A stretch of 64,000 bases of DNA from Planctomycetota bacterium (GCA_038227875.1 JBBRPR010000012.1:125619-189618), one strand, 5' to 3'. Positions 7,274 to 54,789 are shown, numbered from the stretch's first letter. The notes: a model not told the origin generated them from the sequence alone. A program made the numbers and translations.

Positions 7274-8791
7274 ATGAAAGACTTTTACTTCAGCTCTGCC
7301 GTCAATCCGCTGGCCGCGCGCCGGTCGCTCATTTCGCTCCAGGGGCATCGCGTGCCGCTGCCGGGCGCGTCGTCGTACGAGCCGATGCTGCGCGGCTGCA
7401 ATCAGGTCGAGTGGCTCGAGCAACTCGTCCGTATGGGACTGCGCCACCTGATCGTGCCGCTCAACGGACCAGAAGAGGACACCTGCCTCTTCGCGCGCCG
7501 GCATCCCGGCTGGGCCATTCGGTCCGGCGAGAGCACGATCATGCCGAAGATCGAAATTCCCGATGCGACTGGGCCGACTGCCGCGCCCGCCGCAACAGTC
7601 GATCCGGCAGCGCCAAAACCTGTCGCTCGTCCGGCGAAGAAAAAGGCCACGACGGAAGTGCTCTACGATCTGCAGCACCGCGACGAGGGCGCGTTCACGC
7701 GCATCCAGTTCCTGCTCAGCGCGGCGCAGAGCGCCGGGGTGATGGTCGGCTTTACCCTCTTCAACGTCTGGCCGGCGAACAATCCAGGTCCGCTCCACCG
7801 CGGCGCAAATGTGCAGGGCATCGCGCTCGAGGATCTGCTCCGCCCGCAGAAAAAGCAACAGGCGGCCGATCAGCTCGCGGCGCTGGAAGCGGCGATGGCG
7901 CCGTGCATCGACTGGATCGCGGCGGAGATCCGCGGCCGCGCGGCGGTCTGGGTGCAAGCCTTCCGCGGACTGCCCGATATCGATCCGACGCCCGAGGAAA
8001 GTTTCGAGCCCCTGCGGCAGATCGAATTCAATCTCACGAAGAAACTGGCGACCGGATTGACGCGTCCTGCCGAAGACGCCGCGAAAGCGCGCTCCGGGCC
8101 GTGGGTAGTCACCCGCGCGGATTTCAACTGGAGCGGCATGGACACCGCGCACCGCGCGCCGTTCGATATGTGTCGCGAATTGCTCGTCGACAATCAGAAC
8201 GTGGGGCGCGTCTGCAGCGCCGACGACTTTTTACTTCCTGAATCGCCGCTGATTGAACTACCAGCAATTGAGCAGCGGCGGCCGGCGTTGTGCAGTTACG
8301 TCATGTCGGATCGCGACGAGTACAAATCGATGCGCCGGTTTGCGCAGTCGCGGTTGTGGCGTTCGGCAGTGAGCGGGAAGTGGCCGATCGTGCCCGGCGG
8401 ATTTGAGAAGGGGAACAAGCGCCATTGGTTTTTCAGCGCGAAGATGGCGGAATTTTTCAAGCAGTGGGCAGGGAAGGGGTACTTCCGCCCCGCGCCGGAA
8501 ATTCTTGAAGCGGCGACGACGCGCAACCGTATGACGCCGGCGGCGGGTACCGACGGCTGCGGACGCTACTTCGTGTTTTTCGAAGAGACTCCGAAGCGCG
8601 GCGTCGAAGTTTCAATTCCGCCCGGCTGCTACCGCTTTTACTGGCTCGACCCCACCAACGGCCGCGCGATGGATATCGGCGAAGGGCTTCCCGGCGGCCC
8701 GCACTGCCGCGTGCCGGAAGTCGCGACGGAAATGCCGGCACTGCTGGTCGTCGAGCAGGAAGAACTGCCGGACCCCTTGTCCGTCTGGTAA
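7274..8791 (+). CDS. Hypothetical protein, degenerate glycoside-hydrolase-like barrel with C-terminal beta-sandwich (collagen-binding-like) domain
   Basis: YDL..RDEGAFTRIQFLLSAAQSAGVMVGFTLFN resembles DUF4038/DUF6298-type GH-like proteins; C-terminal PGCYRFYWLDPTNG motif. Confidence 0.5.
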   Translation: MKDFYFSSAVNPLAARRSLISLQGHRVPLPGASSYEPMLRGCNQVEWLEQLVRMGLRHLIVPLNGPEEDTCLFARRHPGWAIRSGESTIMPKIEIPDATGPTAAPAATVDPAAPKPVARPAKKKATTEVLYDLQHRDEGAFTRIQFLLSAAQSAGVMVGFTLFNVWPANNPGPLHRGANVQGIALEDLLRPQKKQQAADQLAALEAAMAPCIDWIAAEIRGRAAVWVQAFRGLPDIDPTPEESFEPLRQIEFNLTKKLATGLTRPAEDAAKARSGPWVVTRADFNWSGMDTAHRAPFDMCRELLVDNQNVGRVCSADDFLLPESPLIELPAIEQRRPALCSYVMSDRDEYKSMRRFAQSRLWRSAVSGKWPIVPGGFEKGNKRHWFFSAKMAEFFKQWAGKGYFRPAPEILEAATTRNRMTPAAGTDGCGRYFVFFEETPKRGVEVSIPPGCYRFYWLDPTNGRAMDIGEGLPGGPHCRVPEVATEMPALLVVEQEELPDPLSVW

Positions 8792-11442: not shown

Positions 11443-11739
11443 CGCGATAGTCCTCGGTTATTTTTGAGACGAAGGGGATGAAAGATACCACATGGATTCT
11501 CGCGGCTCGCATCGCCGCCGGATTTTTCTTTTGGGGGACCTTTTGGACTGTAGTTCATAAGTAAAAACTACAACAATCACTGCACTGATGTGCAAAATAA
11601 ATCGCTTGTTGCACTAGGTGCGTCTTGGCGGAAGGGACTTCCGTATGGTTTTCTGCGGCGAGGATGATAAGATGGTGATGTCAGAAGTGTTGCCATCGCT
11701 TCATTTGGTGATTCAGCTTGCACAAAGGGCTCGGCGCGC

Positions 11740-15963: not shown

Positions 15964-16138
15964 ATAAAAACTCCGCTCGACCTCGCCATTTTTGCTGAAA
16001 TCTGAAAGAATTTTTAGAAATTCAAAAGAAGGCAGTTTCTTCTCACTGGTGCAAACCACAACTAATTGTGTTTTTGAAAATCTCCGACCACATTCTGTAG
16101 TCGCGTCTGTAAATGCTGAATTTCGTTGGAGTTACCTC

Positions 16139-16207: not shown

Positions 16208-16717
16208 ATGATGAAGGCCATGAGTGACTTTGGACCCGTAACCGAGACTGTCAGCGCGCCGCTCAAGGGCGGTCGTGCGACGTTCTACGGCACGGCGTAC
16301 CACAAGATCTCGGGCCGCAACCAAGTCGCGATTCCCAAGCACTTGAAGCGCGCGATCGATGAAGCTCAAGAAGGTCAGCTCCTGCTGCTGCGGCTGCCGA
16401 ACGAAAATTTCGTCCGCCTGTACACCAAGAAGCAGTTCGACGCGAAGTTGGATGAACTGAAGCAGAAAGCCGCGACGCAGCCGGTCGTCGATCAGCTGGC
16501 GCGGCTGGCCGAACCGATTGAACCGGACAGCCAGGGACGTTTCGTGCTGCCGGCCAAGTGGACCGATGCGCTGAATATTCGCGAAGAGGTCGCCTTCTGC
16601 GGCGCGTTTACGTTCATCAAGATCTGGCCGGCGGAACTGCAGCGCGAACAGGAACGCAAGGAAGCAGAACAGCTGGCGCAGGTCGGCGATCAGGTCAGTC
16701 AGATTCTGAATATGTAG
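16208..16717 (+). CDS. mraZ: Division/cell wall cluster transcriptional repressor MraZ
   Basis: FYGTAYHKISGRNQVAIPK and DSQGRFVLP duplicated SpoVT-AbrB motifs, IKIW; first gene before rsmH; start may be 16220. Confidence 0.85.
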   Translation: MMKAMSDFGPVTETVSAPLKGGRATFYGTAYHKISGRNQVAIPKHLKRAIDEAQEGQLLLLRLPNENFVRLYTKKQFDAKLDELKQKAATQPVVDQLARLAEPIEPDSQGRFVLPAKWTDALNIREEVAFCGAFTFIKIWPAELQREQERKEAEQLAQVGDQVSQILNM

Positions 16718-21996: not shown

Positions 21997-23493
21997 ATGG
22001 GCGTGACATTATCTTCGGCTGCGACAGGCCTCCAGACGTCCGCGCAGAAGCTCGGCGACCTTGCCGTTGCCGCGGGTGGTTATCTGGCTCGCGGACGAGC
22101 GGACATGACGGTGCGCGGTATTTTCACGGACACGCGTACGCCGCTCAAGGGCGGGCTGTTTGTCGCCCTGCGAGGGGACAATTTCGACGGCAATCACTTC
22201 GCCGCCGATGCAATCACAAAGCTCGGCGCGGCGGCGGTGCTCATCGACCGACCTGAAGCGCTGGACACGCTGCCGCCCAACGCCGCGGCGATTCTCGTCG
22301 AAGATTCGCGCGAAGGATACCTGGGCATCGCTGCGCACCATCGCCGTCAGCTCAACCAGGTGCTCTGGATCGGCGTGACCGGCTCCGTGGGCAAGAGCAC
22401 CACCAAGGAGATGCTCGGCTACATTCTCGAACACGCGTCGGGCTGGCGCGATCAGGCGGCGTGCTGGAGCGTGCACCGCGCCAAGGAAAGTTTCAACAAT
22501 GCCGTCGGCCTTTCGCACACAATTCTCGCTGCGAACCGGCAGCACCAGGCGTCGGTGCTCGAACTGGGCACCAATCATCCCGGTGAGATCAAGCAGCTTG
22601 CCGCCGTAGCGCGGCCGCAGATTGCCGTGATCACCTGCGCGGCCGAGTCGCATCTTGAAGCGTTCGGCAGCATCGCCAATGTCGCGCGCGAGAAGGCGGC
22701 GATCCTCGCGTTTCAGACCGAGCGCGAAATCGCAGTACTGAACGCCGACGATCCGCATTTCGAACTCTTTCGCCAGGCCGCTCGCGGCCGCGTGGTTACG
22801 TTCGGCACTTACGCACATGCCGATTACTGCGTGCGACAGTTGACGCTGACGCAGGGCATGGCGCGATTCCTGATCCGCCACGGCGACAACATTGCCGAAT
22901 GTGCGCTGCGCGTTCCGGGCGTGCATCAGGCCATGAACGCCGCCGCCGCGATTGCGGCCGCCTGCAGCGCGGGGCGTGACCTGCAGGACTGCGCTGCCGC
23001 GGTGAGTCACTTCGACGGCGTCGCGCGCCGTTTTGCCGTGCGCACGGTTCGCGGCGTGACGGTGATCGACGACGCGTACAACGCCAATCCGGCCAGCTTC
23101 CGCTCTGCGCTGGCGACGTTGAAGTCAATGTCGGCGCTGCGCAAATTCGTGGTGGCTGGCGACATGCTGGAACTCGGTGACGCCACACACACTCTCCACC
23201 AGATGCTCGGCTCGCAGCTGGCGGAATGCGGCCTCCATCGTCTCATCACGGTCGGCGCGCTGGCGGGAGAAGCCGGTGAAGCGGCGATCGCATCCGGAAT
23301 GAAACCATCGCAGTGGCTGGAGTGCAAGACGCCCGAGCAGGCCGCGCAGCAGCTTACGCCGCTGCTGGAGCATGGCGATGTCGTACTGGTGAAGGGTTCG
23401 CACGGCATCCATCTCGAACGCTGCATTGAACGGCTTTGCGGAGACTTCCGGCCCGCTGCCAACAGCTCGCGACTGGAAGTGCGCACGGCTTAA
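21997..23493 (+). CDS. murF: UDP-MurNAc-tripeptide:D-Ala-D-Ala ligase MurF
   Basis: TDTR, GDNFDG, GVTGSVGKSTTKEM, SFNN, ELGTNHPGEI, DDAYNANP, GDMLELG, VKGS; start uncertain (21961 or 21997). Confidence 0.95.
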   Translation: MGVTLSSAATGLQTSAQKLGDLAVAAGGYLARGRADMTVRGIFTDTRTPLKGGLFVALRGDNFDGNHFAADAITKLGAAAVLIDRPEALDTLPPNAAAILVEDSREGYLGIAAHHRRQLNQVLWIGVTGSVGKSTTKEMLGYILEHASGWRDQAACWSVHRAKESFNNAVGLSHTILAANRQHQASVLELGTNHPGEIKQLAAVARPQIAVITCAAESHLEAFGSIANVAREKAAILAFQTEREIAVLNADDPHFELFRQAARGRVVTFGTYAHADYCVRQLTLTQGMARFLIRHGDNIAECALRVPGVHQAMNAAAAIAAACSAGRDLQDCAAAVSHFDGVARRFAVRTVRGVTVIDDAYNANPASFRSALATLKSMSALRKFVVAGDMLELGDATHTLHQMLGSQLAECGLHRLITVGALAGEAGEAAIASGMKPSQWLECKTPEQAAQQLTPLLEHGDVVLVKGSHGIHLERCIERLCGDFRPAANSSRLEVRTA

Positions 23494-24398
23494 CGGTCTT
23501 TGATCGCGAGTCCTTCGAGTTTCTTGAGATCGTCCGAGCGCCTGTAGTGGAACGCCCAGAGGAAGATCTGGTTGCGTTCGGGGAAGTGTTGCACGCCGAT
23601 CTTGTAGCGGAAGCAGACGCGGAAAATCTGGTCGGCGTGGCCCAGCGCCCAGATTGCGCGGCGTTGGTAGGCGACTCCGCCGTCCTCGCTTGGAATGAAT
23701 TTCGGGCCGCGCAGACCCGCGATTCCGTTCAGGAATTCCGCGGCGAAGACATTCAGCGGCCGGCCGCTCAGCGCCATATCCGCCAGTGAAATCAAAAAGA
23801 CATACAGTCGGCGGCTGCGCCACTCAAAGACCATCTGCTTGCGTCCCGAGAGGAAAATCGTTTCGGCGAGCTTAAAATCGCTGCTCAGCCGGAACGCAAA
23901 ATCGAACGTTTCCCAGGGAACAATGGGGCTGTCGTGGATTTTCAGCGAATCGGCAATGCTACGCAGCAGCTCCGTCTCCTTCGTGCCGCTGGTGTTGTGG
24001 ATTTCTTCTTTGTAGAAGTAGATCAGGAACGAGAAGAAGCGTCGTTGTTCGGTGGCCAGGCACGACGCGGCGAGCAGGTGGTTGCCGTCGGCCATCACGT
24101 ACAGCGTGGCGAACCAGCCCTTGGGCAGTTCCGACAATTCCTTGCTGCTGAGCGCCTGCTTTTTGAATGCGCGCCCGGCCTTGGCGTAACGCTGTTGGAT
24201 GCGCAGTGCGTTGAAGCGCGGCGGGAGGCGGGTCCATTCGGCGACCAGGCGCCGCACGGAGCCGTCGTCCATTTCAACATGCGAGCGGGTGGTGTTGGTT
24301 TCGTACGACGACATCTCCCACTCGTCGGGGACGCTGAACGAAATGCCGTCCCATGAAAAGGTGTGGAGTTTCGTTGCGGGAGTGGGCTTGCTTGGCAT
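23490..24398 (-). CDS. Hypothetical soluble protein, last gene of the ABC/RRE cluster
   Basis: 302-aa ORF with two apparently related halves (FSWDGISFSVPDEWE / WETFDFAFRLSSDFK); co-oriented with the cluster. Confidence 0.7.
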   Translation of the reverse strand: MPSKPTPATKLHTFSWDGISFSVPDEWEMSSYETNTTRSHVEMDDGSVRRLVAEWTRLPPRFNALRIQQRYAKAGRAFKKQALSSKELSELPKGWFATLYVMADGNHLLAASCLATEQRRFFSFLIYFYKEEIHNTSGTKETELLRSIADSLKIHDSPIVPWETFDFAFRLSSDFKLAETIFLSGRKQMVFEWRSRRLYVFLISLADMALSGRPLNVFAAEFLNGIAGLRGPKFIPSEDGGVAYQRRAIWALGHADQIFRVCFRYKIGVQHFPERNQIFLWAFHYRRSDDLKKLEGLAIKDR

Positions 24399-24409
24399 CG
24401 GAGCATTAG

Positions 24410-24440
24410 AAATTAAAAATTCAAAATTAAAAATTCAAAA
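24410..24440. repeat. Heptanucleotide tandem repeat
   Basis: AAATTAA-AAATTCA-AAATTAA-AAATTCA-AAA directly upstream of the start at 24398. Confidence 0.75.
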
Positions 24441-24475
24441 ACGCACGCGGGAGAATGTTGTTTTGGTTTAAAGTC

Positions 24476-24630
24476 GACTGTCGCGATTTCGGATTCCGCA
24501 GTCACCCTGTTGCAAATTTGCAACAGGGTTCCAGTAAATACCTTCTGGCCAATTGGCCAGAAGCACAACTAATGGTGGTGTTGTACCTGTAGAACACCTT
24601 GGGGACTGTAGTCCCTAAGGTCAGTTTGAC
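24476..24630. repeat. Chain of back-to-back, non-identical palindromes
   Basis: Perfect 26-bp (24504-24529) and 22-bp (24542-24563) palindromes; 1-mismatch palindromes at 24577-24598 and 24597-24620; weaker ones at 24476-24503, 24564-24577 and 24620-24630. Confidence 0.9.
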
Positions 24631-25371
24631 TCAGTGCGAGCCCACGCCTTCGATGCCGCCGATTTCGATGTTCACCTCGCCCTTCTTGGCGATGCGTTCG
24701 ATCTGGCCGTCTTTGATCCAGATCACGCGGTCGGAGGCGTTGAGCATTTTCAAGTCGTGCGTGGCGGTGATGATCGTGATGTTGCGGTCGTTCTTGAGGC
24801 CGTTGAGCAGCTTGATAATCTCTTCACCGGTCTTGAGGTCGAGATTTCCGGTCGGTTCGTCGGCGAGAATGATCGCGGGCTTGTTGACCAGCGCGCGAGC
24901 GATGGCGATGCGCTGCTGCTGGCCACCGGAGACTTGATGGGGGAGGTGGTCGAGGCGATGGCCGAGGCCGACCTGCTCGAGGACCTTCGCCGCGTCCTTG
25001 CGTGCGGTTTCCGGATCGATGCCGGCGAAGATGCGCGGAATGGCAACGTTTTCCAGCGCGGTCATTGTCGCGATCAGATTGAAGGACTGAAAAATGTAGC
25101 CGAGTTTGTGGCAGCGGACGAGCGCGAGTTGATTTTTGGAAATCGACGCGAGCTTGTAGCCTTCGACGGTGACGTTGCCGGACGTCGGCGTGTCCAAGCC
25201 GCCGATCATGTTAAAGAACGTCGACTTTCCCGAACCCGACGGGCCCATGATCGAGAGGTATTCGCCGCGAATGATGTCCAGCGTGATCCCGCGCAGGGCG
25301 TGCACTTCCTCGTGGCCCATGCGGTAGACCTTGGTGACGTTCTCGGCGCGGACGATGATGTTGTCGCTCAT
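24631..25371 (-). CDS. MacB/LolD-family ABC ATP-binding protein
   Basis: GPSGSGKST, GYIFQSFNL, VSGGQQQR, LADEPTGNLD, ATHD; ATGA coupling to the upstream permease fixes the start at 25371. Confidence 0.95.
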   Translation of the reverse strand: MSDNIIVRAENVTKVYRMGHEEVHALRGITLDIIRGEYLSIMGPSGSGKSTFFNMIGGLDTPTSGNVTVEGYKLASISKNQLALVRCHKLGYIFQSFNLIATMTALENVAIPRIFAGIDPETARKDAAKVLEQVGLGHRLDHLPHQVSGGQQQRIAIARALVNKPAIILADEPTGNLDLKTGEEIIKLLNGLKNDRNITIITATHDLKMLNASDRVIWIKDGQIERIAKKGEVNIEIGGIEGVGSH

Positions 25372-26051
25372 TCTTCCACCCTGAGCGCTTCGACGGGCTG
25401 CTTGGTGGCGGCCCAGTACGCCGGCGCGATTGAGGCAGCGACGGAAATCACCGTGCCGATGCCAAACGAAGCGGCAATGACGCCCATGATTTTCAGCCAT
25501 GGGCAGTAGGTCCAGGCAAAACCGTGGAAGCTGAACGTCGAAGCGGCGAACCCGAAAATCAGCCCGATGAGGATGCCGACGATAGTCGCCGCGACGCCCT
25601 GCAGCAGCGATTCGATGAAATATGTCTTCACGATGAACGAGTCAAGCGCGCCGACGCACTTCAGTGTGCCGATTTCCTTCACGCGTTCGGTCACGGACAT
25701 CAACATCGCGTTGACGATGCCGACCAGGCAGGTGATCAGCGATAAGGTGATGAGGATGAACATGCGGGTGTCGGTGCCGGCCATGCGCATCTTGTCGATT
25801 CCGGCATCCTGGAGCAGCGCATTGATCGCGTCGCGGTCGGTGGTGCTGACGTCGATCAGGGCGTGGACCATGACGTGGTTGACCAGCATGTAGCAGAGAA
25901 AGGCGATGGCCAGAATCACGCCGATCATGGCGACGAACGCGCGCATGCGGCGGCGCTTCAAGCTGCCCATGCTGACGGAAAAAACCACGGACCACGGCAC
26001 CGTGTAGCTTTCAGGCACATCCGTCGAAGTTGTCACGGCATTTTCAGCCAC
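25368..26051 (-). CDS. Small FtsX-like permease
   Basis: GIVNAMLMSVTERVKEIGTLKCVGA and PAYWAATKQPVEALRVE FtsX motifs; 4 TM with a very short periplasmic loop. Confidence 0.9.
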   Translation of the reverse strand: MAENAVTTSTDVPESYTVPWSVVFSVSMGSLKRRRMRAFVAMIGVILAIAFLCYMLVNHVMVHALIDVSTTDRDAINALLQDAGIDKMRMAGTDTRMFILITLSLITCLVGIVNAMLMSVTERVKEIGTLKCVGALDSFIVKTYFIESLLQGVAATIVGILIGLIFGFAASTFSFHGFAWTYCPWLKIMGVIAASFGIGTVISVAASIAPAYWAATKQPVEALRVEE

Positions 26052-42439: not shown

Positions 42440-42630
42440 GGCGTGAATTCCAATCGAGTTCAACCCTAGCGGGCGTCGGTATAAATTTATCCGGAGGTCA
42501 AAATGACAAGTTGCAGTATTGAAAATTCGGGCCTGTATCACCGGTGTGAGCATATTGCAACTTTGCAGTATGCTACCCTGGAACGAATTCGTGACAGGGT
42601 CCGCCAAGAGCTACGAGCCGACAGCCGCCA

Positions 42631-44277
42631 CTACAGCCACTTCACAAAGAACTTCTCCGCCAGATCGACATGGAATTGATGGGCGAGCTCGAACACCTCC
42701 ACGTCGAGCCGCTCCGCCACGCCCGCCGCGACGTACGCTCGTTTCGCGTCCTCGGCGATGCTGCGGAAGCGGATGATGTTGAACGTGGAATCCAAGCGCC
42801 CCTGTCCAAGCAGCAGCGGTCGCGGTGCGATTAGGCTTAGGACTTCGCCCACATCTCCGGTTGGATAGAGTCCCGGCACGATCTGCAGTCCGCAGCCGTC
42901 CTCCAGCGCGTAGTCCTCGTAGCGGCACATGCCGCACATCACACAGATAGCCTTGAAGCGGTCGTCGAAAGCGCCGGCCAGGTACGAGAGCGTTCCGCCG
43001 CCCGAAAGTCCGCCGAGTCCCAAGCGCTTGGCGTCGACTTCCGGCAGCGAACTCACGTACGCGTGCATGCGGTGGAGATCGGCGAGGTGCAGGCGCGGCA
43101 GCGTGAAGCCCATCGAGAGCGCGCGCCAGCCGGCCACGTTGCAGGGATCTTCGCGCCCGTTGTAATCGCGGCGTTCGCAGAAGCCGCGTTCGCACATCAT
43201 TGATGTGACGAACCCGCGCTGCGCCAGAGCTTCGGCGTAATTTTCGAAATGTTGAGTCGGACCGACGTGTCGCGTCGGTCCCGTCGGCTTGTACGTGCCG
43301 GCGAGGACATCGAACTGGCGTTCGTGCCCGTGCGCGAGCACCACCGTGCGGCCGTTACGACGAGACTTTTCCGGAATCAGCACAAACAGCGGCAATACCG
43401 CATCGCCCTCGCACGGCAGATGGATGCGCCGCTTGACGTAGCCGTCGCATTGAACTTCCGCGACGATTTCCGGTGCGCCGCCAGTGGTGGGTGGATCGAC
43501 GCCGAGGCAGCGGTGGTAATGCGCCCCGAACGATTCCTGCCAGCGCGCGAGCTCCTCGCGCGTGGTCCCGGTGAAGGGCGCCTGGATCTTAAGTTGTTTG
43601 GCGTGTCGGCGCATTTGAGCGAACGTGGAAATTGCGAGTGTCTTGGGTACCGGACGTTGCGCGATGCTTTGGAGCGTTCGCACGGCGTCGGGATTCTTCG
43701 GCGTACTCAGGCGCGCGATCACGCCGTCGCGGTCGAGCTGGAAGAGGAAGCTGTTGACGCCTTTTTTCAGTGCGACGGGAACGCGCTCCATGTCGGCGAT
43801 GCAGTGATGAAAACTGTGCTCTTCAAAGCAGAATTCGCCGTTGATCCACAATCTGCAGCCGTCCCAGCCGGAAAAATGGAGCTCGGCATCCATGTCTGCC
43901 GGACTTTCGACCAGCGCGAGAGTGTAATAAAGCTTCGCCCACGGATCGGGATCGACATCTTTGAGTTGGGGCTGGAGCGAGGGAAATTCGTCGCGCGCGT
44001 TCCGTAGTGAAAAGCGCGGTGACCACTCCAGCGGCACCAACTCCCAATTACAAGCCAATGCAGGCGAATCGGGAACGCTGCGGATGCCCACGCAGCCGCC
44101 GAACGCCGCAAGATGATCTTCCGTCCAGCGCGTGGAAATCTTTTTGTCGAAGAGGTTGGGGGAGGGATCGCGCTGCAGTCCGGAATCGAAAAATCCGGCC
44201 AGGTGCCAGTCGCACAGAAATCCGGGCGTGCGATCCCAGGTCAGGAGCGGTCGGTGTATGGCGTCGGTGGTAGGCAT
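42631..44277 (-). CDS. Alpha/beta hydrolase (dienelactone hydrolase/esterase-like) with N-terminal beta-sandwich domain
   Basis: AHGH, nucleophile elbow GLSGGG, LIAPRPLL, terminal HQF; N-terminal DGCRLWING..VALKKGVN domain. Confidence 0.85.
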   Translation of the reverse strand: MPTTDAIHRPLLTWDRTPGFLCDWHLAGFFDSGLQRDPSPNLFDKKISTRWTEDHLAAFGGCVGIRSVPDSPALACNWELVPLEWSPRFSLRNARDEFPSLQPQLKDVDPDPWAKLYYTLALVESPADMDAELHFSGWDGCRLWINGEFCFEEHSFHHCIADMERVPVALKKGVNSFLFQLDRDGVIARLSTPKNPDAVRTLQSIAQRPVPKTLAISTFAQMRRHAKQLKIQAPFTGTTREELARWQESFGAHYHRCLGVDPPTTGGAPEIVAEVQCDGYVKRRIHLPCEGDAVLPLFVLIPEKSRRNGRTVVLAHGHERQFDVLAGTYKPTGPTRHVGPTQHFENYAEALAQRGFVTSMMCERGFCERRDYNGREDPCNVAGWRALSMGFTLPRLHLADLHRMHAYVSSLPEVDAKRLGLGGLSGGGTLSYLAGAFDDRFKAICVMCGMCRYEDYALEDGCGLQIVPGLYPTGDVGEVLSLIAPRPLLLGQGRLDSTFNIIRFRSIAEDAKRAYVAAGVAERLDVEVFELAHQFHVDLAEKFFVKWL

Positions 44278-52370: not shown

Positions 52371-52398
52371 AATCCCCCGCATTGAAGTGCGGGGGATT
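52371..52398. repeat. Strong hairpin (REP-like or terminator) downstream of the GH127 gene
   Basis: AATCCCCCGCA-ttgaag-TGCGGGGGATT; second hairpin GTCGCTCG..CGAGCGAC at 52320-52347. Confidence 0.6.
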
Positions 52399-54763: not shown

Positions 54764-54789
54764 AAGAGGCCAGCGGAAGCTGGCCTCTT
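54764..54789. terminator. Terminator hairpin after the tRNA (possibly bidirectional)
   Basis: AAGAGGCCAGC-GGAA-GCTGGCCTCTT followed by GCTTTT. Confidence 0.8.

Follow-up and report, generated by a model that had tools for sequence, protein, structure and literature searches.

A chain of palindromes behind an ABC transporter gene of a planctomycete as a probable REP/BIME-like mosaic of dispersed DNA repeats

The locus and the units of the chain

The stretch of DNA analysed here (hereafter the window) comprises 64 kb and corresponds to G000:C12:125619-189618, i.e., to a part of contig C12 in an assembly of 9.34 Mb in 176 contigs with 59.6% G+C; positions are counted from the first letter of the window unless a contig is named. 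The source genome is a Planctomycetota MAG (88% complete, 4% contamination) and the sole member of its genus among the genomes compared. The nearest named relatives of its Mur ligase are two MAGs labelled 'Planctomycetota bacterium' with 57% and 53% identity, and in the nearest genomes, the counterpart of the ABC protein described below is only about 60% identical.

The palindrome chain (24476-24630) is situated in a gap of 232 bp between two genes on the minus strand. Its upstream neighbour is an ABC transporter ATPase gene (24631-25500, minus strand; PF00005, E 1.7e-33), the stop codon of which (24631-24633) touches the chain, such that the chain constitutes the 3' flank of this gene. The downstream neighbour (23490-24398, minus strand) is an ORF of 302 aa called from codon usage, which belongs to no known family and has no Pfam match; no relative of the protein was found in genome_contigs or metagenome_contigs, and 16 genomes from the family of the source organism yielded none with this query either. 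A paralogue of the ORF with 27% identity is found at C6:110746-111390. Outside the window, the region C6:99378-111390 unites this paralogue with two paralogues of the ABC ATPase (52-54% identity to the one in the window), so that the pairing of both genes may be functional. All gene calls stem from our own crude codon-usage caller, and the stop-codon distances and gap classes given below are approximate.

The sequence-only reading, from which this analysis started, wanted the segment confirmed from reads. Run X1, probably the source sample, provides a contig that agrees with 24421-25100 at every position, and run X2, from a different study, provides one of 161 nt that spans 24483-24643 and deviates at a single position (24534, in a spacer); as true DNA, the chain is thus supported by contigs of both runs. 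That the contigs of run X1 break within the A/T-rich repeat, one piece ending at 24440 and the next beginning at 24421, might be taken as a sign of an assembly artefact. Against the two contigs that cover the chain, and against the existence of a paralogous copy of it, such an artefact is, however, scarcely conceivable.

The seven abutting palindromes distinguished in the sequence-only reading, the quoted letters of which match the sequence, are of unequal quality: a repeat search recovered four robust inverted repeats (24504-24529, 24542-24563, 24577-24598, and 24596-24621), whereas the three other units are weak, with arms of 3 to 5 bp. The first of the weak units (24476-24503, GACTG-N18-CAGTC) has arms of 5 bp around a loop of 18 nt and lies in a poorly conserved linker; it was missed by the repeat search at a minimum length of 8, and its counterpart in the paralogous copy is non-palindromic. 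Palindrome A (24504-24529) follows as a perfect palindrome of 13+13 without spacer and belongs to the family ACC-N8-AATT-N8-GGT. Palindrome B (24540-24565), a 26-mer with a perfect 11+11 core (24542-24563), is the left hairpin of a three-part module; it begins with ACC and exhibits the family geometry, but ends with GCA instead of GGT, on account of which it was left out of the strict ACC..GGT count.

The middle part of the module is a conserved central block of 33 nt (CACAACTAATGG..GTACCTGTAGAACA, 24564-24596, plus strand). It contains the fourth unit of the sequence-only reading (CACAACTAATGGTG), the arms of which measure only 3 bp, and most of the fifth (24577-24598), an imperfect inverted repeat of 10+10 with one G-G mismatch and a spacer of 2 nt. 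Palindrome D (24596-24621), an ACC..GGT 26-mer of 12+12 with one G-T mismatch, a spacer of 2 nt, and the loop TGTA, is the right hairpin of the module and occupies a hypervariable slot. The chain ends with the junction GTCAGTTTGAC (24620-24630; GTCA-GTT-TGAC, the seventh unit), which has arms of 4 bp, abuts the stop codon of the ABC ATPase gene, and represents a joint of the type GGTC-AT-rich-GACC that is found elsewhere between successive units. At the opposite side, towards the 302-aa ORF, an A/T-rich block ending in CGCACGCG (24411-24454, plus strand; core TTCAAAAACGCACGCG at 24434-24449) represents a copy of a gene-end repeat.

That no two units are alike, as had been stated, holds for their letters but not for their design: A and D fit the frame ACC-N8-N4-N8-GGT and B shares its geometry, i.e., three of the four robust units (A, B, and D) share one 26-bp geometry. 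The whole window contains five distinct perfect palindromes with arms of at least 9, two of which fall in the chain. Further palindromes of the window are located at 42575-42600, 43259-43281, 52371-52398, and 54764-54789; among these are one ACC..GGT frame with two mismatches (C12:168193) and three GC-rich hairpins with loops of 4-6 nt, the one at 52371-52398 being flanked by AA and TT.

Repeat families in the genome

A scan of the whole genome yielded 839 perfect palindromes (arms of at least 9, loop of at most 4), and 995 when mismatches were allowed. A test of the palindrome density against chance, likewise called for in the sequence-only reading, gave a clear answer: 611 palindromes are found in intergenic DNA (1.32 Mb) compared to 37 in a first-order Markov simulation, far above chance, and coding DNA (3 Mb) is at the simulated level (119 versus 134), such that the excess is confined to intergenic DNA. 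At least one palindrome is present in 579 of the 6078 intergenic regions; 63 regions hold two, 15 hold three, and one holds four, which makes 79 with at least two, and the gap with the chain is among the 16 richest (at least three).

Aligned on their centres, the spacer-free intergenic palindromes exhibit A-C-C at -13 to -11, then variable positions, and G-C-(A/C)-A-A at the centre. The frame ACC-N8-N4-N8-GGT is realized 117 times perfectly and 78 times with one mismatch (195 units in total, about 0.04 being expected by chance), and of the 275 perfect 11-4-11 palindromes that all 64 possible clamps yield together, 117 bear the ACC clamp. An AATT loop is found in 112 of the 195 units, and 21 of the 195 lie inside crude gene calls. 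With up to two mismatches, the family comprises 246 members, the two-mismatch class including an estimated 8 or so chance frames; the class with three mismatches was dropped, as about 59 of its 83 frames are expected by chance. The perfect palindromes with arms of at least 11 amount to 379 distinct sequences, and copies of the ACC..GGT family are far more diverse than those of classical REPs, a difference that was counted against a REP/BIME reading. Identical copies also occur: palindrome A is found six times in the genome in unrelated flanks, and one imperfect 26-mer bears the identical three mismatches at three loci.

Concerning their position, the ACC..GGT members with up to two mismatches are situated at a median distance of 33.5 nt from the nearest upstream stop codon. 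Convergent gaps contain 52 of them, tandem gaps 132, and divergent gaps 29; with gap totals of 222 kb, 757 kb, and 345 kb, respectively, this corresponds to about 0.23, 0.17, and 0.08 members per kb, the divergent promoter gaps thus having the lowest density. In being palindromes within the range of 20-40 bp, high in copy number, and extragenic, the 26-bp units agree with REPs in the broad sense.

Among related genomes, the motif ACC-N6-CAAATTTG-N6-GGT has 54 matches in the source genome; three genomes of the same family contain 2, 1, and 2 matches, respectively, the 37 other relatives searched (G013 among them) contain none, and a reversed control gave none. The ACC..GGT family is heavily expanded in the source genome only. 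A motif of like design, ACC-N5-GCAAATTTGC-N5-GGT, was encountered in IMG/VR contigs, with 33 matches that include three perfect palindromes and seven with one mismatch, which is above chance. Perfectly or nearly palindromic 26-mers of the form ACCCT..GCAAATTTGC..AGGGT occur in viral contigs of varied G+C (L119, L122, L131, L144, L146, and others), several of them in frames that are open across the whole locus of 226 nt, and two translated by hand would read ..ANLPxG.

The part of the chain at 24540-24630 is one of 15 copies of a module of about 90 nt (nhmmer E below 1e-13), in which palindrome B, the conserved 33-nt block, and palindrome D follow each other in this order, often succeeded by GTCATTTTGAC. 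The latter stands behind the D hairpin in four other copies (C56, C12:96k, C2, and C1) and in a form shorter by one base in C35; joints of the type GGTC-ATTTT-GACC recur between units across the module copies. Module copies thus show what is characteristic of BIMEs, i.e., clusters of palindromes, recurrent linker motifs, and mosaic combinations. They occur in both orientations relative to the neighbouring genes. A pattern of the central block has 14 matches in the source genome and 0 in metagenome_contigs; in 400 other Planctomycetota genomes, only four single matches with three mismatches were found, compared to one for the control. The chain as a whole possesses a paralogous copy 53 kb apart and inverted: 24411-24630 and C12:96587-96804 are 82.4% identical over 222 columns, and at the end corresponding to the ABC stop codon, the paralogous copy contains an extra palindrome and a second A/T-rich block.

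The A/T-rich block (24411-24454) has more than 50 BLAST matches across the genome. Its 16-mer core TTCAAAAACGCACGCG, with up to two mismatches, is found 77 times, 59 times outside gene calls and mostly directly after stop codons, the block usually starting a few bases past the stop codon. Most of the blocks are single (61 of 77); in eight cases, two blocks form an inverted pair around 72-275 bp, and several of these pairs have palindromes between them. A duplication of the target site was not observed, and a reading of the pairs as MITEs was set aside because the blocks follow stop codons and occur mostly singly. On the minus strand of 24399-24440, TTGAAT and TAATTT are discernible by eye at a distance of 17 nt, ending about 12 nt before the ATG; they might act as a promoter facing outwards, in the direction of the 302-aa gene, which a consensus scan did not list. 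At more than ten gene-end positions outside the window (e.g., C19:29995, C4:42717, C8:66934, and C33:38279), the CGCACGCG block is followed by a further dispersed repeat of about 100-150 nt (GGTGCCATGGATGCGCGGAC...GTCCGTTCATCCGTGC...CACGGATGAA) with a long hairpin of its own.

In the simplest copies (e.g., C18:120879, C4:51733, and C70:37603), the block is the left half of a plain A-tract/stem/T-tract hairpin. From this it could be argued that the CGCACGCG blocks are the two halves of a bidirectional composite intrinsic terminator (A-tract, GC stem, T-tract), that the palindromes are passengers in its loop, as in several of the eight inverted pairs, and that the chain is the terminator or attenuator of the ABC gene, the more so as its minus strand ends with CGCGTGCG, behind which a long T-rich run leads up to the 302-aa gene. 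At the chain, however, only a single half of the block is present, its A/T end being about 12 nt from the start codon of the 302-aa gene (24398), so that the closing stem cannot form, and a simple scan listed no canonical terminator either at the T-rich run or in the chain itself, where there was one weak match at 24542-24563. Moreover, most of the palindromes are found outside such frames (246 members with up to two mismatches against 59 intergenic blocks), the ACC..GGT units are without T-tracts, unlike intrinsic terminators, and canonical hairpins with A-tract and T-tract form a separate class of about 130 in the genome. A composite terminator is a rather unlikely explanation.

Three repeat families, i.e., the 26-bp palindromes, the module of about 90 nt, and the A/T-rich CGCACGCG block, compose the chain, which is very probably a mosaic cluster of dispersed palindromic DNA repeats of REP/BIME-like kind.

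Conserved pairing and its possible causes

Covariation was counted on an alignment of 14 module copies (A1). Five of the seven stem pairs of hairpin B and eight of the 11 of hairpin D are changed on both sides, with 90.8% and 92.9% of the cells paired, respectively; none of 500 shuffles reached the observed score, and slid controls drop to 27-44% paired. For the hairpin proposed at 24577-24598, none of seven pairs covaries and one pair never forms; this unit is conserved as sequence, not as helix. The central block has a mean pairwise identity of 86% among the 14 copies and the ACC/GGT clamp one of 92%, compared to only 48-55% for the variable stem of D. As these stems are 48-55% identical and yet 92.9% paired, the variable paired stem of D reads as the mark of a structural constraint and not of a sequence-specific operator.

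This bears on the claim that the chain unites operators of several transcription factors in a kind of catalogue and serves as a decoy, a sponge, or a control element with multiple inputs. The palindromes with short or absent spacers are in keeping with it, as is the match of the unit at 24596-24621 to the DosR consensus (18/20), in the form in which that string, from Mycobacterium, is found in print. In 13 other module copies, however, the DosR-like slot holds palindromes of unrelated sequence with the same pairing, and an operator of DosR/NarL type finds no support, as a sequence-specific box would be conserved at functional sites. A recurrence of two units in promoters, which had also been put forward, proved real, and improbable as a product of chance, in one case: CACAACTAAT occurs seven times in 9.3 Mb, six times in module copies and once at 16057-16070, where it corresponds to the 13/14 match upstream of a gene. 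The other match (11/12, at 11545-11556) is at about the level of chance, an estimated 0.3 being expected per window. The match at 16057-16070 falls in the conserved central block of the module and, judged by its sequence, is probably a decayed fragment of it; the surrounding ACCACAACTAATTGTG (16040-16110), upstream of a gene at 16208, is the sole instance of CACAACTAAT outside module copies. As for the units being unique regulator sites, the genome-wide search placed each robust unit in a dispersed repeat family. With hundreds of copies, mostly after stop codons, and with the lowest density in divergent promoter gaps, these families leave an array of operators hardly tenable. A nucleoid-organising site, the remaining suggestion of this kind, would be possible by analogy with BIMEs.

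When the six module copies adjoining the A/T-rich block are aligned, five possess different 26-mers in the D slot, and the slot is empty in the copy on C17, both flanks of which nevertheless align. This empty slot, the 26-mer with shared mismatches at three loci, and the covariation of the stems lead us to conclude that a 26-mer is copied, inserted, or lost as a whole, and that complementarity, not sequence, is what is preserved in it. The idea of a chain built by sequential insertion is supported to this extent, since it fits the empty D slot as well as the identical 26-mers in unrelated flanks. The covariation itself could stem from replacement of cassettes instead of compensatory change.

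Three results point to a symmetry at the level of DNA. The centres are self-complementary in 143 of the 195 units, and among the 83 without AATT this is the case in 31, compared to an expectation of about 6% in random tetramers; on the sense strand, mismatches exhibit no bias for G-U over A-C (37 versus 30, p 0.46, a comparison of limited power); and the module is found in both orientations.

The same results weigh on the proposal that the module is a non-coding RNA or a 3'-UTR element selected as RNA, e.g., an mRNA stabiliser or a small RNA. The strong covariation in two hairpins around a conserved single-stranded block and the position after genes would suit such an element, as would the predicted RNA fold of the gap (minus strand, -76.6 kcal/mol, z -5.28), which ends in a long U-rich run. 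Copies in both orientations relative to the neighbouring genes, the lack of an excess of G-U over A-C, and self-complementary centres far commoner than an RNA loop requires speak against it. So do the lack of a match of the chain in Rfam 15 (best E 0.33, to an unrelated microRNA model and far below the gathering score) and the finding of the block as single three-mismatch matches only in the 400 other Planctomycetota genomes. We consider such a structured RNA improbable. An effect of the chain on transcripts may, by the modelled fold, nonetheless be compatible with the results on DNA-level symmetry.

Alternatively, the 26-28-bp units might be bound as duplex by a dimeric protein, namely a nucleoid-associated protein, gyrase, or a tyrosine recombinase. 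The arms of 11 bp around an A/T centre of 6 bp (20 bp lie between the clamps ACC and GGT) are comparable to the 11-6-11 layout of Xer sites. The two-fold symmetry through the centre, the invariant clamp, and the A/T-rich core would suit a dimeric protein, and E. coli BIMEs bind IHF and gyrase, as far as the sources cited describe them (PMC2817692, PMC3333891). A protein that binds the duplex, however, gives no reason for variable stems to stay complementary, no candidate protein was identified, and hundreds of active recombination sites would presumably destabilise the chromosome. Sites of this kind are very unlikely to account for the chain.

The units thus recur, are intergenic and biased to the 3' ends of genes, and retain their pairing, single 26-mers being present or absent as units. 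A mosaic of dispersed repeats, taken together with the following proposal for their spread and persistence, is the explanation that we regard as likely. The 26-mers would spread at the level of DNA, each unit being inserted or copied as a whole; their symmetry would be kept by correcting one arm against the other, and their persistence at gene ends would be explained by the little damage they cause in that position. Whether spread and symmetry are in fact governed at the DNA level is about as easy to believe as to doubt. Concerning the function of the ACC..GGT repeats, we infer what follows from their arrangement. Transcription from the ABC gene would turn the chain into a series of stable hairpins followed by a U-rich tract, and such hairpins could retard 3'-to-5' degradation or attenuate read-through to the 302-aa ORF; that such a function at the 3' end of the RNA has been selected is conceivable, though we rather doubt it. 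A protein might bind to the conserved central block of the module, by analogy with the IHF site in BIME-1 of E. coli.

If the symmetry is maintained at the DNA level, the family would lend itself as a natural system to the study of the origin, correction, and tolerance of palindromes in a bacterial chromosome, and the search for the responsible enzyme could start from it. When genomes of this lineage are annotated, it is advisable to mask ACC..GGT units ahead of any prediction of operators or small RNAs.

Comparison with known repeat systems

Titles among the matches listed for Planctomycetes palindromic repeats gave no published description of the ACC..GGT family, which is weak evidence of its absence from the literature. 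Two enzyme-associated systems were considered and rejected. The Ssn proteins, as described in the source cited (PMC11893778), are small GIY-YIG single-strand nucleases with NTS/SRM hairpin repeats, and these resemble the present family in being hairpin repeats with hundreds of copies around genes. Unlike in that system, the single small GIY-YIG gene of the source genome has no ACC..GGT unit beside it, the nearest being 1.5 kb away, and an Ssn/NTS-type repeat was rejected for this lack of adjoining units.

The second is mobilisation by a RAYT, as in a REPtron. The Y1 transposase family (PF01797) has eight matches at seven loci in the genome; no member of the ACC..GGT family is found within 3 kb of these seven loci, and mobilisation of this kind was rejected, as no Y1 gene is flanked by ACC..GGT units. 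A separate family of GTAG-type palindromes (CCCAGGGTAGCGC.., 27 matches of the motif) exists in the genome. Outside the window, at C43:7910-8525, a split or frameshifted Y1 (HUH) gene (PF01797 at 8018-8194 and 8179-8358) has inverted copies of a palindrome containing GTAG (CCCAGGGTTGCGCC..GGCGCTACCCTGGG) on either side; gene and palindromes resemble a classical REP/RAYT pair and are distinct from the ACC..GGT family.

The attC sites of integrons measure 57-141 bp, are imperfect with extrahelical bases, end in RYYYAAC/GTTRRRY, and flank gene cassettes next to an integrase. The planctomycete units share with them conserved short ends, a variable self-complementary middle, and the possibility of recognition by structure instead of sequence, but with 26 bp they exhibit neither the length nor the ends, extrahelical bases, or flanked cassettes of attC sites. 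On these lines, the 26-mers may be cassettes specified by structure: a putative enzyme or repair pathway would read the folded ACC-stem-AATT-stem-GGT hairpin, insert units in preferred slots (next to other units, or inside terminator-like frames), and copy arm to arm, such that the stems diversify and yet stay paired. We offer this as a long shot. If true, it would amount to a self-symmetrising, hypervariable, palindromic mobile unit that works without a RAYT, and such units would be closer in their logic to attC sites or to the hairpin substrates of IS200 type than to REPs.

In contrast to the operator catalogue from which the interpretation of the locus had started, the comparison with REPs and BIMEs assigns it to a known kind of arrangement, the REP/BIME-like mosaics. 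In BIME-1, an IHF-containing non-palindromic block lies between two palindromes; similarly, the planctomycete module possesses a conserved non-palindromic block between two palindromes. The general likeness concerns short extragenic palindromes with more than 100 copies, as described for E. coli and other Proteobacteria in the literature cited (PMC2817692, PMC3333891, PMC3733652), and mosaic clusters with specific linker motifs, mostly at the 3' ends of genes. There are also fundamental differences. Strict REP families carry the tetranucleotide GTAG or CGTC at one end of the palindrome, as the source states it (PMC3733652), whereas the planctomycete units bear ACC/GGT at both sides without either tag and have no flanking RAYT gene. 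Most of their copies are perfectly palindromic across the centre, where the core is AATT; their stems are hypervariable instead of near-identical, and their symmetry makes an orientation undefinable. The ACC..GGT family is very probably a lineage-specific REP/BIME-like mosaic repeat with unusual traits, and it is these traits that classical REPs lack: an AATT-centred perfect symmetry, an invariant clamp of 3 bp, hypervariable paired stems, and discrete units of 26 bp with no HUH transposase alongside.
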